The translations under genes were made by a program, and so were the position numbers. A stretch of DNA of 64,000 bases from an uncultured Bacilli bacterium (GTDB lineage Bacteria > Bacillota_I > Bacilli_A > RF39 > UBA660), in assembly GCA_934120265.1 (NCBI GenBank), contig CAKOTU010000001.1:69395-133394 (forward strand). Direction: 5' to 3'. Position 1 is the first letter of the stretch. Each line of letters begins with the position of its first letter. The notes below the pieces were generated by a model. The model was not told the DNA's origin. It was given only the letters and a program-made list of their open reading frames with translations, and made no database searches. Of this stretch, positions 6,408 through 63,509 are shown in pieces.

Positions 6408-7370
6408 ATGAGAAAAAAAGGATTTACTTTGATAGAACTATTAGCAGTAATAATAGTACTAGCTGTTATAGCACTAATAATAACACCAATAGTAACAAAA
6501 ACAATAAAGGATGCAAAAAAGGGATCAGCTGAAATTGAAGCACAAAATTATATAAGGGCTGTACAATTCGCAATATCTAATTCAGAAATTATTAAGAAAT
6601 CTATTCCGGATGGAAGGTATAACATAGATAGTGATGGTAATTTAACGGGTACAGGTTTACCAGATGGAAAACTGGAAATAGATACAAATGGAGATAGACC
6701 AACGGGAGGAACAATAGTAGTAAAAAGTGGACAGGTAACAACTGATTCTGTTATAGAAGTGGGAAGTTATGAAGTTGCATACAATCCAGCAATAGATAGT
6801 TATGAAGCAAAAGAAAAAGGTACATCATTAATTTGTGACTTACAAGAAGGAACAAGTCAAACAGTAGGAGCAAAATATACATGTCATTTAGATAATGATA
6901 GAACATTTTATGTATTAGAAACTTCTGGAGATAACGTAAGTTTAATAATGTCAGAAAATTTTACGGATGATACTGTATCAGCAACAGTAGGTTGGTGTAT
7001 AGATGGAGTACGTAACAATACAACATGTAAAAACATAAATTCTAAAGATGAAGGAACACCATTAAAACATATACAGGATGTATTCGGTACAAAAGTAGTA
7101 GTAAGTTTCCCGACCGCAAGTCAACTTGCAAAAGCATCAGGTAAAACATTTGATAATGCCGCAATTTCATTAACACCAACATGGCTATACGCTAATTTAT
7201 TCGGTTATTCAATTCCATATGGATATTGGACTGCTTCCTATATGTCTAGCACTAGTGATCAAGCTTGGTATGTATCTAGTGATAGTAGTGTGAGTAACAT
7301 CACTGTTGAACTTTCAAGCGTATTCGGTGTACGCCCAGTAATTACAATTTCAAAATCACAATTAAATTAA
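6408..7370 (+). CDS. Prepilin-type protein, shared N-terminal module plus Cys-containing C-terminal domain ending GVRPV
   Basis: MRKKG/FTLIELLAVIIVLAVIALI. Residues ~1-135 are paralogous to the ORFs at 34134 and 53848. C-terminus has YGYWTAS...AWYV...VFGVRPVITI, shared with 34134. AGGAGG RBS. Confidence 0.75.
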   Translation: MRKKGFTLIELLAVIIVLAVIALIITPIVTKTIKDAKKGSAEIEAQNYIRAVQFAISNSEIIKKSIPDGRYNIDSDGNLTGTGLPDGKLEIDTNGDRPTGGTIVVKSGQVTTDSVIEVGSYEVAYNPAIDSYEAKEKGTSLICDLQEGTSQTVGAKYTCHLDNDRTFYVLETSGDNVSLIMSENFTDDTVSATVGWCIDGVRNNTTCKNINSKDEGTPLKHIQDVFGTKVVVSFPTASQLAKASGKTFDNAAISLTPTWLYANLFGYSIPYGYWTASYMSSTSDQAWYVSSDSSVSNITVELSSVFGVRPVITISKSQLN

Positions 7371-33810: not shown

Positions 33811-34004
33811 TTGACAGCAAAGAATACTAAATTGTATAATAAGAACAGTAAAGGTAGTGATAGTATGGTTAAAGAGATAAGTATAAAACTAGCTCAAAAC
33901 CCAACCTGGGGGGGGGGTATATTTAATCATACTATAATATTAAATAAAAAAGAAAACACAAAGCTTCTAGACTTTCGATAGTCTAGATTTCTTTGTGTTT
34001 TTTG
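33811..34004 (+). promoter_or_regulatory. Promoter plus structured leader RNA plus intrinsic terminator (copy A), candidate riboswitch/attenuator
   Basis: TTGACA (33811), 18-nt spacer, TATAAT (33835). 14-bp helix 33860-33873/33922-33935 encloses ~48 nt including G10 (33908-33917). Two-tier terminator 33953-34004. Near-identical copy at 53609-53799. Confidence 0.55.
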
Positions 34005-34133
34005 TGTACACCTTTATAAGAAGAGAGTTGTTTTAAAAATACATAAACGCATTAAAAATATGTATTATGACTAGATGTTTATAAGAATTGAAAAAGGGTA
34101 TAATTAAAATATAAGTAATGTAGGAGGAAAAAA

Positions 34134-35552
34134 ATGAAAAAGGAAGGATTTACTTTAATAGAATTATTAGCGGTAATAGTAGTATTAGCAATAATAGCAT
34201 TAATAGCAACACCAATAGTGATGAATACAATAAATAGTGTAAAGAAAGGTGCGGCTGAGAGAAGCGCAGAGAATTATATAAGGGCGGTAGGACTAGCCAT
34301 ATCTACTTCAGAAATTAATAAAAAACCAGTTTCTGATGGAAAATATTCTATTGGCAATGATGGCAATTTAATAGGAACAAATTTACCGGATGGTAAATTA
34401 GAAATAGATACAAATGGAAATAAGCCAACAGGAGGAACCATAGTAATAAAAGATGGACGAGTAACAACAGAATCAATAATATCAATTGGAGAATATGAGG
34501 TTTCATACAATGAAGAAATTAAAAGATATGAAGCAATAAAGTTAGAAACATACTCAATAAAGTATAATTTAACAAATGTGATTGGGGATAGTAGCAATGT
34601 AACAATCATATCAACAAAAGATGTTAAAACATTAAAGTTTAATCCTGCTTCGGGATACGTATTACCAGATAATGTGACAGTAAATGGGGCAACAAGTGTA
34701 TGGGATAAAGAAACAGGAACATTGATATTATCAAAAGCAACTGGAAATGTAACTGTTATTGTGAATGGTTCTAAAATATATTCAAATGGAGATGAAGTAT
34801 ATTTTAATGTAACAACAGGAACAAAGTGTTCATCATCCGATTACACGGAAACACAAAGTAATACAGGAGTAAAAGAAGGATGTATGAAGTTTTATGCTTT
34901 TAATGATGATGGAAAAGATAAAGTAAATCTTTTGTTAGACCATAATACAACTGCAACAGTAGCGTGGTTATCTAAATCAGATTATGTAGAAGCAGGAGGA
35001 ACAGAAAGTGATTATGGAAGTGAAGGAAAGAATGATAAAGGACCATTAACAACATTAAAGCAATTAAACAGTGATACAGCAACATGGAAAGGAACGGAAA
35101 CTCCTATAAATTATATAATGGACCAAACAGGCCAATCAAGTAATGCAAAATACACAATAGATTATAATGGGTATAAGGCAAGATTAATAACAACAAAGGA
35201 AGTAGCTCAAATTACAGGAAATACAACATGGGATGAGAAGACTGCCGGTAATAGATTTTACTTTGATACAAATTCAACTTCTTCAAGTGCAACATGTATA
35301 AGTGGAAATACAAGTGGATGTTCATATGGATGGCTTTACGATAGAACAAAAATGAATTGTAAGGCATATGGTTGTTTAAATAATTCAGATAAAGAAACTA
35401 ACGGCTATTGGGCTGCATCTTCACGTGCTGCAAATCCTTATCGAGCTTGGAATGTGTACTGCTTAGCTAGTATAAACTATAACACTGTTAGTAGCACAAG
35501 TACATATGGTGTTCGCCCGGTTATAGAAGTACTAAGATCAAAACTAAATTAA
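34134..35552 (+). CDS. Prepilin-type protein, shared N-terminal module plus Ig-like linker plus large Cys-rich C-terminal domain ending GVRPV
   Basis: MKKEG/FTLIELLAVIVVLAIIALIATPIV. Residues 1-135 are paralogous to 6408 and 53848. C-terminus has ARLITTKEVAQI...GYWAASS...AWNV...YGVRPVIEV. AGGAGG RBS. Confidence 0.75.
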   Translation: MKKEGFTLIELLAVIVVLAIIALIATPIVMNTINSVKKGAAERSAENYIRAVGLAISTSEINKKPVSDGKYSIGNDGNLIGTNLPDGKLEIDTNGNKPTGGTIVIKDGRVTTESIISIGEYEVSYNEEIKRYEAIKLETYSIKYNLTNVIGDSSNVTIISTKDVKTLKFNPASGYVLPDNVTVNGATSVWDKETGTLILSKATGNVTVIVNGSKIYSNGDEVYFNVTTGTKCSSSDYTETQSNTGVKEGCMKFYAFNDDGKDKVNLLLDHNTTATVAWLSKSDYVEAGGTESDYGSEGKNDKGPLTTLKQLNSDTATWKGTETPINYIMDQTGQSSNAKYTIDYNGYKARLITTKEVAQITGNTTWDEKTAGNRFYFDTNSTSSSATCISGNTSGCSYGWLYDRTKMNCKAYGCLNNSDKETNGYWAASSRAANPYRAWNVYCLASINYNTVSSTSTYGVRPVIEVLRSKLN

Positions 35553-53608: not shown

Positions 53609-53799
53609 TTGACAAAAATAAATATAAAACTGTATAATAAGAACAGTAAAGGTAGTGATAGTATGGTTAAAGATGTAAGTATAAACATAACTCAAAACCT
53701 AACCTGGGGGGGTTATTTAATCATACTATAGTATTAAACGAAAAAGAAAACACAAAGTTTCTAGACTTTAAAGTAGTCTAGATTTCTTTGTGTCTTTTG
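53609..53799 (+). promoter_or_regulatory. Promoter plus structured leader RNA plus terminator (copy B)
   Basis: TTGACA (53609), 18-nt spacer, TATAAT (53633). Helix 53658-53671/53716-53729. G7 at 53706-53712. Terminator 53747-53799. About 90% identical to copy A. Confidence 0.55.
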
Positions 53800-53847
53800 T
53801 TATGCCTTTATAAAAAAGTAAATCTAAAGAAAAAAGGAGGAAATGAT

Positions 53848-54714
53848 ATGAAAAAGAAAGGATTTACACTTATTGAATTACTAGCGGTGATAGTAGTACT
53901 AGCAATAATAGCTTTAATTGCAACACCAATAGTAATGAATACAATAAAAAGTGCGAAGAAAGGCGCAGCGGAAAGAAGTGCAGATAACTATATTGATGCA
54001 CTAGAAACAGTGGTTTCCACAAAACGTTTAGATGGAAATATCTTAGAAGGAGAATACCTAGTTCAATCGGATGGAAACTTATGTCCAACATCAGGATGTG
54101 GAGAAAATGATAAAGATAAAGTTGTTGTTGAAGTGAATGGAAATAAACCAATAAGAGGAACAATAGTAGTAAAAGATGGGCAAGTAACTACCGATTCAAA
54201 AATGACAGTAGGAAGTTATGAAATATCATATAATTCAACAACAAAGAAATATGAAGCAACAGAGAGCAGTAGTGCTTCGCCAACGGTAGTATATAGATAT
54301 TCAACAGATATAGTTAGCATAGGAGATACGATGAATGACTCGACAAAATATACAACTAATCCAAGCACATTAGGAAAAGTAGTATATTTAAAACATATAT
54401 TAGATAAAAATCATAAAGTAACAGAATCATACGCCTGCATTAATGAGAAGAGTATTGAAGCATGCATACAAGGTGGTAGTGCTGATTTTTATGGGTGGTC
54501 AGAAGAAGAAAGCAATTATAAAGGAAATGAGTTAATAATAAAAACGTTGCAAGATAAGGGCTTTAATTGTTATTTAAGTGCTTCAGATTCTTTTTGTACA
54601 GGTGATTCAGTTTATCTAGATGCAGGTCCAGGTGGACGTGTTGGCGTTGAAGGTGGAGGAAGTGAATACGGTAATTGTGAAGTTAATGAAGATGGTAGTT
54701 CTTCTTGCCGATAA
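53848..54714 (+). CDS. Prepilin-type protein, shared N-terminal module plus distinct Cys-rich C-terminal domain
   Basis: MKKKG/FTLIELLAVIVVLAIIALIATPIVMNTIKSAKKGAAERSADNYI is near-identical to 34134. The C-terminal ~150 aa is unrelated to the GVRPV-type domain. AGGAGG RBS. Confidence 0.75.
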   Translation: MKKKGFTLIELLAVIVVLAIIALIATPIVMNTIKSAKKGAAERSADNYIDALETVVSTKRLDGNILEGEYLVQSDGNLCPTSGCGENDKDKVVVEVNGNKPIRGTIVVKDGQVTTDSKMTVGSYEISYNSTTKKYEATESSSASPTVVYRYSTDIVSIGDTMNDSTKYTTNPSTLGKVVYLKHILDKNHKVTESYACINEKSIEACIQGGSADFYGWSEEESNYKGNELIIKTLQDKGFNCYLSASDSFCTGDSVYLDAGPGGRVGVEGGGSEYGNCEVNEDGSSSCR

Positions 54715-62749: not shown

Positions 62750-62931
62750 TTGAAGAAGATTAGTAAATTAAAAATATTTTAAAGAGAGTCTGTGGCCGGT
62801 GTGAACAGATAAATGTTTTGATTGAAGCTCCTTTGGAGTGTGATTAATAATCACCGGGAAACCGTTATCAAAATTAAGATCAATTAGGATGGTACCACGG
62901 TTTTTCGTTCCTAGAAAAACACGTGGTTTTT
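62750..62931 (+). promoter_or_regulatory. T-box leader (tRNA-sensing transcription attenuator)
   Basis: AGAGAG bulge (62782-88), distal loop GGCCGGUGUGA, T-box AATTAGGATGGTACCACGG (62882-62900). Antiterminator TAGGA/TCCTA with UGGUACC bulge. Competing terminator 62895-62926 plus T5. Confidence 0.8.
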
Positions 62932-62957
62932 ATATATTTAGATATAAAGGAGGAACT

Positions 62958-63509
62958 ATGGAGTTTACAAAAAAAGAAGTTAAAATATTTTTATTGTCAG
63001 GTAAAGCTAGAAGTGGTAAAGAAACTGTTTCTAGTATGATAAAAGATTATTATTCTAGTAAAAAAGTTATAGCTATATCTTTTGCCGGCTATTTAAAAGA
63101 ATACGCTAAAAAAATAAGTGGTTGGGATGGAAGCGAAGAGACTAAACCAAGAGAGTTTTTACAACAATTGGGAATAGAACTAATAAAAGAAAAAATAGAT
63201 AATAAATTATTTATAAGAAGAGTTTTAGAAGATATAGAAGTTTATTCATATTTCTTTGATGTTATTATAATAACTGATGCTAGACTAGTAGATGAGGTAG
63301 AATCGGTAAAAGATAAATATAAAGATGCTGTAACAATTAGAATTGTTAGGGACGATTATGAAAGTAATTTAACAAGTGATCAAAAGAACCATATTACAGA
63401 AACAGGATTAGATGGATATAATAATTTTGATTACATAGTAAGTAATAATGAATTGGATAAATTAAAAGTAGATATCGATAAAATATTAAAAGAGGTGGAT
63501 TATGAATAA
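62958..63509 (+). CDS. dNMP kinase-like P-loop protein (phage T4 gp1-like family)
   Basis: FLLSGKARSGKETV P-loop and NHITETGLDG motif parallel LSGVKRSGKDT / THITEAGL of T4 gp1. AAGGAGG RBS at the ATG 62958. Confidence 0.65.
   Translation: MEFTKKEVKIFLLSGKARSGKETVSSMIKDYYSSKKVIAISFAGYLKEYAKKISGWDGSEETKPREFLQQLGIELIKEKIDNKLFIRRVLEDIEVYSYFFDVIIITDARLVDEVESVKDKYKDAVTIRIVRDDYESNLTSDQKNHITETGLDGYNNFDYIVSNNELDKLKVDIDKILKEVDYE

Follow-up and report, generated by a model that had tools for sequence, protein, structure and literature searches.

We analysed a 64,000-nucleotide (nt) stretch of DNA from an uncultured Bacilli bacterium (assembly GCA_934120265.1, contig CAKOTU010000001.1, positions 69,395 to 133,394 of the forward strand), here called the window, in which an initial annotation had assigned the open reading frame (ORF) at window positions 34134–35552 to a modular family of prepilin-type proteins. 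The window has a G+C content of 27.6% and looks like a Firmicute-type chromosome, judging from its polC, hrcA-grpE-dnaK-dnaJ, prfA-prmC and clpB-like genes. A six-frame motif scan of the window found exactly four prepilin-type N-termini, all on the + strand, as are the promoters, leaders, uORFs and T-box described below; the genes are named P1 (ORF 2662), P2 (ORF 6408), P3 (ORF 34134, the flagged ORF) and P4 (ORF 53848). They are single genes scattered among housekeeping genes, the neighbours across the four sites being rpmF and ftsW, a histidine kinase gene and queA, prmC and polC, and a greA-like gene and hrcA. Related loci and contigs that were fetched for comparison carry L-numbers, and homologous proteins are designated P0002 and so on. 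The results point to P2, P3 and P4 as genes for modular type IV pilins and to a leader element through which P3 and P4 are probably switched on and off.

All four proteins begin with a short basic leader, Gly−1, Phe+1 and Glu+5, followed by a hydrophobic stretch, and all four passed the Pfam N_methyl model, P2, P3 and P4 with 26.9–31.3 bits against a gathering cut-off of 21.2; P3 and P1 also passed TIGR02532 (28.7 bits against a cut-off of 16.3). The N-terminus of P2, P3 and P4 has the form M(K/R)K(K/E)GFTLIELLAVI. In P3 the class III signal characteristic of type IV pilins spans M1 to G5 (MKKEG), the cleavage site lies before F6, where the sequence continues FTLIELLAVIVVLAIIALIATPIV, and E10 is Glu+5. 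The N-terminal parts of P2, P3 and P4 were 57–69% identical in amino acid sequence and could be aligned nearly without gaps to about residue 135, after which they diverged. Both the shared class III signal and the alignable module ending near residue 135 had been claimed for ORFs 6408, 34134 and 53848 in the initial annotation, and both were borne out. Protein P1 has the α1 helix alone in common with the other three and, as read from its sequence, is outside the family of the ~135-residue module.

An AlphaFold2 (AF2) model of P3, made with a 60-sequence alignment, gave a mean predicted local distance difference test (pLDDT) score of 82.6 and fell into three parts. An N-terminal helix of 54 residues (8–61) is followed by a β sheet extending to about residue 136, with strands at 69–73, 100–106, 115–118, 121–126 and 131–136 and pLDDT values of 85–92 there, and together these form the pilin module. 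The second part, at residues 139–211, is an all-β domain, in agreement with the extra immunoglobulin (Ig)-like stretch that had been ascribed to ORF 34134, and the third, at residues 216–472, is a mixed α/β C-terminal domain (C-domain). In this model the first part has the pilin fold, a long α1 helix on an antiparallel β sheet. A full-length family profile searched against the PDB sequences matched the α1 helices of solved type IV pilins and nothing else. A Foldseek search with the whole three-domain model of P3 returned no pilin, giving instead generic Ig or Fab and Gram-positive adhesin matches with template-modelling (TM) scores of about 0.1; as this search was uninformative, the C-domain was modelled alone.

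C-terminal modules and the size of the family

P3 is thus a predicted modular type IV prepilin of 472 amino acids (34134–35552), consisting of a pilin module (residues 1–135, 34134–34538), an Ig-like all-β domain (residues 136–215, 34539–34778) and a C-domain (residues 216–472, 34779–35549). Modelled alone, the C-domain gave a pLDDT of 88 and a predicted TM score (pTM) of 0.87. Its best match in the PDB was 9qa6, the cryo-electron microscopy structure of the Thomasclavelia ramosa immunoglobulin A (IgA) peptidase, with a Foldseek probability of 0.99 and a TM score of 0.48; the N-terminal domain of this peptidase (about 290 residues) is an expanded C-type-lectin-like domain that resembles the C-terminal domain of Legionella Lcl (PMC12237041). 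The predicted viral structures that matched best were those of DUF6273 proteins of gut phages, of receptor-binding and tail-fibre proteins and of a DUF1566 protein (Foldseek probabilities up to 1.00, TM scores 0.42–0.47). The C-domain of P3 was therefore distinct, as the initial annotation had supposed, and matched non-pilin proteins. Its predicted fold resembles that of the group formed by DUF6273, DUF1566 (Lcl C-terminal domain) and the T. ramosa IgA peptidase, from which it differs in lying below the Pfam thresholds and in reaching TM scores of only 0.45–0.48. Pfam matches to DUF6273 were sub-threshold, with E values of 0.019 for P2 and of 6e-4 or weaker for five of 61 homologues, and neither phmmer nor the family profile found a match to the C-domain among the PDB sequences. 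The DUF6273-like domain carries the C-terminal motif GYW.AS...AW.V...GVRPVI. We consider the resemblance of the P3 C-domain to the DUF6273/C-type-lectin-like fold group to be of moderate confidence, because there was no sequence-level match in the PDB.

P2 (6408–7370) encodes a predicted modular type IV prepilin of 320 amino acids with a pilin module at residues 1–136 and a C-domain (6816–7367) that is a smaller version of the one in P3. In BLAST comparisons the C-terminal parts of P2 and P3 overlapped over their last ~49 residues only, with 43% identity, and transitive links placed both in one single-linkage component; the suggestion that ORFs 6408 and 34134 share a C-domain type, larger in the latter, therefore stood. 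P4 (53848–54714; 288 amino acids from its ATG) was assigned as a modular type IV prepilin from its N_methyl match and its alignment to P2 and P3. Its pilin module (residues 1–136, 53848–54255) is a subtype with a Cys79–Cys84 loop, and its C-domain (residues 137–288, 54256–54711) contains six cysteines, had no Pfam match and was unrelated to the C-terminal parts of P2 and P3, as had been described. A word-index protein search with the P4 C-domain gave two matches only; an exhaustive search later found the domain in 11 further representative clusters.

P1 (2662–3465; 267 amino acids) encodes a predicted prepilin-dockerin fusion in which the class III signal and α1 helix are followed by a different globular part and two type I dockerin repeats. 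The two stretches matched Dockerin_1 (PF00404) with 89.1 bits against a cut-off of 22.9 (E 2e-25). Proteins with this N_methyl and Dockerin_1 architecture make up a small conserved family of about 20 clusters at the 90% identity level, some of them 52–98% identical to P1. An independently folding extra domain that is not specific to pili, the mark of a modular pilin, was thus present both in P1, which has the dockerin, and in P3, whose C-domain folds alone in the model and is found elsewhere. The C-terminal modules are probably binding or adhesive domains.

We then considered the extent of the family. Residues 28–136 of P3, searched against a set of 1.84 billion representative proteins clustered at the 50% identity level, matched 398 clusters at E ≤1e-3, of which 107 reached E ≤1e-10. 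Among the best 150 module matches listed, the module was always N-terminal, nearly always at about residues 28–135, in proteins of 122–599 amino acids; a few start-truncated fragments among these matches carry it from residue 2–11. When 136 representatives with a C-terminal extension were compared by all-against-all BLAST, at least 26 unrelated C-terminal types were found on the one N-terminal module (N-module), the DUF6273-like type with 91 members and the P4 type with 12. A search with P3 gave more than 4,000 clusters at 90% identity in three architectures: N-module, Ig-like domain and C-domain; N-module and C-domain; and two or three tandem C-domains behind an N-terminus of the MKNNKGFAISS... 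type that lacks Glu5. The DUF6273-like domain is thus not confined to the N-module: proteins P0002, P0009–P0011 and P0021 have two or three tandem domains behind a pilin-like N-terminus without Glu5 (MKNNKGFAISSVVY...) that resembles a small minor-pilin-like ORF at 2709–3182 of contig L106, beside a PilB-like ATPase gene.

Among species-representative genomes the family was confined to metagenome-assembled genomes (MAGs) labelled uncultured Bacilli, Tenericutes, Mollicutes or Firmicutes, obtained mostly from animal and human guts. Seventeen of the best 80 loci were in one MAG and 15 in another, that is, at least 15–17 loci per genome. We concluded that P2, P3 and P4 are, as far as their sequences can tell, modular type IV pilins, and that their family is specific to, and heavily expanded in, a lineage of uncultured low-GC gut Bacilli. 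The initial description of oversized prepilins with a conserved N-module and exchangeable C-modules of binding or adhesive appearance therefore holds.

Modular type IV pilins are a known class, surveyed by Raynaud et al. (2021; PMC8179133) and represented in Streptococcus sanguinis by PilB (vWA) and PilC (lectin) (PMC8179133; PMC9934059); here one carrier module is reused in an unusually large paralogous family. The S. sanguinis proteins have the same plan, in which a short linker connects the class III signal and small pilin module with a bulky module of functional or adhesive character. They differ in that here one module occurs with at least 26 C-modules, in at least 15 scattered single-gene loci per genome rather than in one pil operon; in that the C-modules are DUF6273/C-type-lectin-like, Cys-rich or dockerin domains, the last of which is not mentioned in PMC8179133; and in that many of the genes have a switch-like leader of their own. 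The "conserved pilin" of TANB77 (PMC11680825) was considered and set aside, as the Tad-type cluster described there is from a different order and does not belong to this family. ORFs of 181, 92 and 350 amino acids adjoin P2 and P4 (7476–8296; 51972–53024) and had no Pfam match; the 350-residue product has a hydrophobic segment at its end.

The leader element and its reading frames

A non-coding segment of about 200 nt upstream of P3 and P4 was 86–91% identical between the two genes, better conserved than their coding regions, and was absent before P1 and P2. In P3 it begins with a promoter matching the consensus at 12 of 12 positions (TTGACA, an 18-nt spacer and TATAAT; 33811–33840), which is kept upstream of most leader copies. 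The leader RNA (33841–34022; covariance model R1 match, 190.7 bits) comprises helix P0 (33848–33854 with 34011–34017), helix P1 (33859–33873 with 33922–33936) and a terminator hairpin (33954–33975 with 33980–34003, −24.8 kcal/mol) followed by a U run. The P4 copy is arranged in the same way, with a 12/12 promoter (53609–53638), a leader RNA (53639–53816; covariance model match, 178.4 bits), helix P0 (53646–53652 with 53805–53811), helix P1 (53657–53671 with 53716–53730) and a terminator (53748–53769 with 53775–53798, −20.8 kcal/mol) with its U run. Minimum free energy z-scores were −7.5 for the P3 leader and −5.8 for the P4 leader. In P3 the leader is joined to the ribosome-binding site (RBS; AGGAGG, 34122–34127) by a "long-form" extension (34018–34133) that is also found in L004, L009, L019, L020, L051, L013 and L066; it is a conserved segment of about 110 nt with a small hairpin (ATACATA..TATGTAT) plus GGGTATAAT, and is absent from short-form loci such as P4. 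A second promoter inside this extension upstream of P3 was set aside, as the scan gave no consensus match. P2 has its own promoter (TTGACT..TGTATAAT) upstream of 6408, with no leader and no G-run, and P1 too has a plain promoter of its own without a leader. The constant promoter and leader proposed in the initial annotation therefore applied to ORFs 34134 and 53848, which share an identical run of 43 nt there, and did not apply to 6408 and 2662.

The consensus fold consists of three helices: P0, in which the 5′ GUAAAGG pairs with CCUUUAC beyond the hairpin, P1 (12 bp) and the terminator hairpin. Of the cells in the model-fitted alignment, 97% were paired, against 34–50% in slid controls, and compensatory changes occurred at 8 pairs, against 2.9±1.3 in shuffles. 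G-U was the commonest pair at two positions of helix P1 and frequent at one position of helix P0, which favours an RNA on the + strand. An invertible element at the GTAAAGG/CCTTTAC repeat was considered and rejected on three grounds: the repeat does not enclose the promoter, its hairpin is symmetric, and the G-U pairs fit a + strand RNA. In the genome loci fetched for comparison, blastn located the leader ahead of about 20 pilin genes, and the covariance model together with one metagenome scan raised the collection to 62 copies. Wherever the downstream DNA could be read, a prepilin ORF (148–676 amino acids) followed, 15–126 nt away (27–126 nt for uncut copies). Twelve metagenome contigs end inside the leader, at about model positions 97–159 (L107, L113, L123, L124, L126–L129, L131, L134, L136 and L093), as would be expected if a multicopy repeat breaks assemblies. 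The leader repeat, and possibly heterogeneity of its G-run, seems to cause these breaks, so that copy numbers in MAGs are probably underestimated.

Within the leader lies an upstream ORF (uORF) whose conserved AUG is in the 5′ arm of helix P1. Of 55 distinct leaders, 54 keep its first 14 codons open, and stops interrupt the other two frames in 54 and 55 of them, respectively. The uORF stretch is the most variable part of the element, yet the open frame is kept, and the indels found in it (L110, L113) were 12 nt long, a multiple of three. The uORF enters a run of G residues as codons W-G-G..., and runs of G5 to G11 were seen inside it. In P3 the run is G10 (33908–33917) and in P4 it is G7 (53706–53712); these were the only G or C runs of six or more in the 64 kb, and both fall within the helix P1 region of the leader. 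The P3 uORF has a Shine-Dalgarno sequence (AAAGG, 33850–33854) 10 nt before its AUG, which doubles as the 5′ strand of helix P0, and is in the long frame with 38 codons (MVKEISIKLAQNPTWGGGIFNHTIILNKKENTKLLDFR; 33865–33981), its TAG stop (33979–33981) falling inside the terminator, at the loop/3′ arm. The P4 uORF is in a short frame with 22 codons (MVKDVSINITQNLTWGGYLIIL; 53663–53731) and stops in the 3′ arm of helix P1, 17 nt before the terminator. The Shine-Dalgarno and AUG context of the uORF (window positions 33848–33867, AAAGGTAGTGATAGTATG) closely resembles the start context of leaderless pilin genes in the distant relatives L033, L035 and L039 (AAAGGTAGTAGTGAAGTAGTATG) and of gene P1 (AGGTGATAGTATG); a duplicated 5′ end of a pilin gene is a possible origin of the uORF.

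The three frames that leave the G-run end at characteristic places. Frame A has about 19 codons and stops at a TAA in the 3′ arm of helix P1, frame B has 22–24 codons and stops at the end of helix P1, and frame C (...FNHTIILNKKENTKFLDF...) has 37–40 codons and ends inside the terminator, at its loop or 3′ arm, a pattern that also held in the diverged SIG212 copies, which have a different hairpin sequence. Simulated changes in run length shortened the P3 uORF to 23 or 20 amino acids with G9 or G11, and extended that of P4 to the 38–39-codon long form with G8 or G5. Each of the 29 G-run leaders tested yielded, upon one-G changes, the set of about 19, 23 and 38–40 codons, with a long frame that reached the terminator in every case. 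Copies with a run of five or more (n=42) were distributed as 27 in frame A, 7 in frame B and 8 in frame C; among the 13 copies without a G-run, 11 were in frame C, none in A or B, and 2 were degenerate. Three orthologous pairs from different samples were 96–98.5% identical over about 500–580 nt, including 400 nt of unique upstream flank, and differed in these short-read consensus assemblies by a sole indel of one G (window G10 versus L002 G9 over 582 nt; L087 G8 versus L120 G9; L107 G8 versus L131 G9).

From these results we propose the following mechanism. A strong promoter would produce a leader RNA of about 180 nt that contains the poly-G uORF and an intrinsic terminator, and slipped-strand gain or loss of one G would change the frame of the uORF. 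In the long frame the ribosome would translate into the terminator and block formation of the hairpin, allowing transcription to continue into the pilin gene (ON), whereas in either of the other frames the ribosome would stop early and transcription would terminate (OFF). In the sequence studied here P3, with G10 and 38 codons, would be ON, and P4, with G7 and 22 codons, would be OFF and turned ON by the insertion of one G. The domain architecture, the expansion of the family, the conservation and structure of the leader, the maintenance of the uORF, the frame logic and the run-length differences were read directly from the sequences; assembly into filaments, a binding function, hypermutability of the run within a population and antitermination by the ribosome are what we infer from them. 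The anatomy of the leader points to on/off phase variation of expression, not to recombinational shuffling.

Frame C was taken as the ON state by analogy with the sortase pilus operon pil1 of Streptococcus gallolyticus, and this choice also fits the leaders that lack a G-run, which are locked in frame C and precede intact pilin genes. In pil1, experiments have shown that a leader peptide changes its reading frame as GCAGA repeats are gained or lost (Danne et al. 2014, PMC3894217). Expression is low with short peptides, whose translation stops 39 bp ahead of a terminator, and high with long ones, whose translation ends inside the terminator or past it, the ribosome thereby preventing the hairpin (PMC3894217). 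The two systems have in common a promoter, a leader ORF with a slippage-prone repeat, an intrinsic terminator and a pilus gene, with the pil1 frame logic found in 29 of 29 leaders here; the uORF bears an RBS, is proximal to the promoter and contains the repeat, and one frame only enters the terminator. They differ in that here the repeat is a G homopolymer in place of GCAGA units and the target a type IV pilin in place of a sortase pilus, the leader is multicopy (62 collected) on different paralogs, the conserved helices P0 and P1 are additional, and the system is known from sequence alone.

Other known switches share parts of this design. Mycoplasma vlp lipoprotein genes switch ON and OFF independently through a poly-A tract in the promoter spacer of each gene. 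They too form a multigene family with a 5′ homopolymer, a conserved 5′ non-coding region and N-terminal export or anchor part, and variable C-terminal parts exposed at the surface, in related low-GC lineages with small genomes; here the proteins are pilins and the poly-G lies in a uORF/attenuator or, in distant relatives, in a promoter spacer. In Clostridioides difficile cwpV a leader terminator is formed or not through site-specific DNA inversion, which makes it alike in phase variation through a leader terminator and different in the means of switching. In Escherichia coli pyrBI a leader ORF runs through an attenuator and the translating ribosome prevents termination, as proposed here, but the system senses uridine triphosphate and is not phase-variable. 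The distant relatives L042, L044, L047, L048 and L060 lack the leader and have G9–G11 in the −35/−10 spacer, about 40–80 nt upstream of the pilin ATG, an arrangement that by its sequence is one of classical promoter-spacer phase variation. In L031 the promoter is as in L047 but the run is interrupted (GGGAGGGGG), and in L036 and L058 a G10 run forms the 5′ arm of a terminator-like hairpin.

Filament assembly, expression switching and competing explanations

Taken as a whole, the reading in which P2, P3 and P4 are modular type IV pilins, with expression of P3 and P4 stochastically switched through the G-run, uORF and terminator of the leader, is the one we favour, with rather more confidence than doubt. 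Several points weigh against it. The run-length differences come from short-read metagenome assemblies and are possibly homopolymer errors; G9 is strongly modal (27 of 42 G-run copies), and a tract that is conserved and not hypervariable would account for this equally well; and variation in the first 15 codons of the uORF showed no third-position bias, so that the peptide sequence is not clearly selected. Coupling of transcription and translation is weak in some Firmicutes. The conserved helix P0, which pairs the Shine-Dalgarno sequence of the uORF with a segment beyond the terminator, is unexplained by the simple model and would sequester that Shine-Dalgarno in read-through transcripts. The C-type-lectin-like assignment depends on TM scores of 0.45–0.48, without sequence-level support in the PDB. 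Finally, motif searches and tblastn for PilB and PilD found no pilus machinery or major pilin in the 64-kb window.

The last point bears on how the proteins are used. By means of the pilin module, P2, P3 and P4 would be built into a type IV filament, most likely as scarce subunits or at its tip, and each would present its own C-terminal ligand-binding module, DUF6273/C-type-lectin-like with or without an Ig-like spacer for P2 and P3 and Cys-rich for P4; P1 would carry its dockerins on a different pilin module. When all fetched loci were searched for PilB and PilD, L106 alone was positive. This metagenome contig carries the leader and a pilin of the family and, within 8 kb of the pilin gene, genes for a PilD-like membrane peptidase with a GGGDIK motif, a GspE/PilB-family ATPase (E 1e-148 to TIGR02533 and TIGR02538, below the equivalog cut-offs) and two small pilin-like proteins. 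Given this machinery, filament assembly in the lineage is plausible. The proteins might instead stay unpolymerised, the class III signal and pilin module acting as a membrane anchor or export device for surface binding proteins, in the manner of the sugar-binding proteins with class III signals in the Sulfolobus bindosome, an alternative that bears on their role and not on their regulation. The presence of at least 15 such genes per small genome, all with bulky C-domains, and a window with neither machinery nor a classical small major pilin would suit this alternative, which we nevertheless regard as unlikely: the module in the predicted model is a full pilin fold of helix and sheet, more than a signal, a filament ATPase and minor pilins occur on a related contig with the same family, and the modular pilins of S. 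sanguinis are incorporated into pili (PMC8179133).

A second alternative, to which we also give little weight, concerns the leader, which could be a ligand- or protein-responsive attenuator or a 5′ stabiliser of the mRNA, with the G-run as a structural loop and the small ORF incidental or encoding a micropeptide, so that the genes would be regulated and not phase-variable. The strongly conserved fold, a three-helix junction with compensatory changes and a helix that closes the 5′ end beyond the terminator, is in keeping with such a role, as is the mode of G9 in most copies. Cyclic di-GMP (c-di-GMP) riboswitches control pilA1 in C. difficile. Searches against Rfam 15, including the c-di-GMP riboswitches, assigned the leader to no family, either in the whole window at the gathering score or in both leaders up to E 10, the best scores in the two leaders being 15–21 bits against thresholds of 50–100; the sole match in the window at the gathering score was a T-box leader (RF00230, 62741–62915, 108.5 bits) that precedes the ORF at 62889–63509. 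As far as these and the literature searches show, the leader is an undescribed RNA/uORF family. A regulated attenuator would also leave unaccounted for an open frame of fixed length kept in the most variable part of the RNA, with indels of 12 nt, the single frame of all copies without a G-run apart from the two degenerate ones, the three-frame design of 29 of 29 leaders, and G-runs of the same kind in the promoter spacers of relatives. Antitermination of the pyrG type, by pairing of the poly-G with the pyrimidine-rich 3′ arm, was considered and rejected, as it would involve mainly G-U pairs and leave the maintained ORF unexplained.

Less probable still is switching at the level of RNA, in which polymerase slippage or +1/−1 ribosomal frameshifting on the G-run would set a fixed or tuned fraction of long uORFs without heritable states. 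Runs of G9–G11 are perfectly slippery both for tRNA-Gly and for polymerase, and the modal G9 state is one nucleotide away from the long frame; set against this are the one-G differences in DNA between orthologous loci and the copies without a run, which are hard-wired in the long frame.

The initial annotation had proposed recombinational shuffling between a constant 5′ cassette and variable 3′ cassettes. As an active system this would amount to antigenic variation of the Neisseria pilE/pilS kind, with an expressed 5′ cassette of promoter, leader and N-module recombining with 3′ cassettes at about codon 135. The conserved N-module, the leader conserved for two genes with identical runs of up to 43 nt, and reassortment of N- and C-modules in evolution are compatible with this proposal. 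The N-modules closest to that of P4 (79%) are on proteins with the Ig-like domain and C-domain of the P3 type (about 70% identical to P3) and not with the P4 domain, and those closest to that of P2 are joined to the large P3-type domain. Reassortment was thus upheld on an evolutionary time scale, but not as an active cassette system. Searches with every module by tblastn found no silent or partial copies of N- or C-modules in the 64-kb window, every copy there is a complete gene with its own promoter, and there is no repeat at the module boundary; neither silent promoterless copies nor long conserved tracts of the pilE/pilS type were present within the window. Paralogous coding sequences had no long identical tracts, the longest runs being 14–20 nt, and their synonymous sites had diverged. 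The first ~150 nt of ORFs 34134 and 53848, described as nearly identical, were 83% identical, with different codons at 16 of 45 identical residues and a longest coding run of 14 nt; codon identity at conserved residues was not raised toward the 5′ end. Because the N-modules within the window are 57–69% identical to one another and 78–79% identical to those of proteins from other genomes, there is no sign of gene conversion. We consider active shuffling very improbable, and the best explanation of these sequences is that the family diversified by the grafting of many modules onto one pilin module over evolutionary time. Neisseria varies its type IV pili both through pilE/pilS and through phase variation of pilC by a poly-G tract and frameshift. 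The present family resembles it in the variation of type IV pilus components and in the poly-G of pilC, and differs in having no silent cassettes in the window, no sign of gene conversion, and a G-run in an upstream leader ORF rather than in the structural gene. That the proteins are ordinary ComG-type competence pseudopilins or minor pilins without distinct C-terminal domains is hardly tenable, since the sub-threshold NCBIfam matches to ComGC, ComGD and ComGE involve the N-terminal helix only and are far below the cut-offs (26.6 against 75 bits for ComGC), the genes lie one by one among housekeeping genes rather than in a comG operon, and the C-terminal parts are of at least 26 types and, as modelled for P3, are domains that fold independently and also occur in proteins other than pilins.

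Modular pilins are thought to explain many functions of simple type IV filaments. The family described here takes this idea to an extreme, in that an uncultured lineage of the human gut combines one carrier with dozens of modules that probably serve in binding. Its leader is a well-defined candidate RNA/uORF family for databases and is also a warning for assemblers and annotators, as contigs often break inside it. Since the state of a gene can be read from the length of the G-run in metagenomic reads, the inference of switching is directly testable. If the leader works as proposed, the repertoire would be tied to stochastic switching of each gene, the logic of Opa, Vlp and Pil1 variation, in the type IV pili of a commensal, with consequences for attachment to mucus, glycans, fibre or other cells and for evasion of IgA. 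More tentatively, and with a chance that we put somewhat short of even, these bacteria may hold a wardrobe of at least 15 modular type IV pilin adhesins on one module, each gene independently and heritably switched by poly-G, through the new uORF/terminator leader in close relatives and through the promoter spacer in distant ones, so that one pilus machine would display stochastic, combinatorial binding tips. Type IV pili would then have their first known case of attenuation-type phase switching, which would also be the first such switch to occur as a multicopy leader family.

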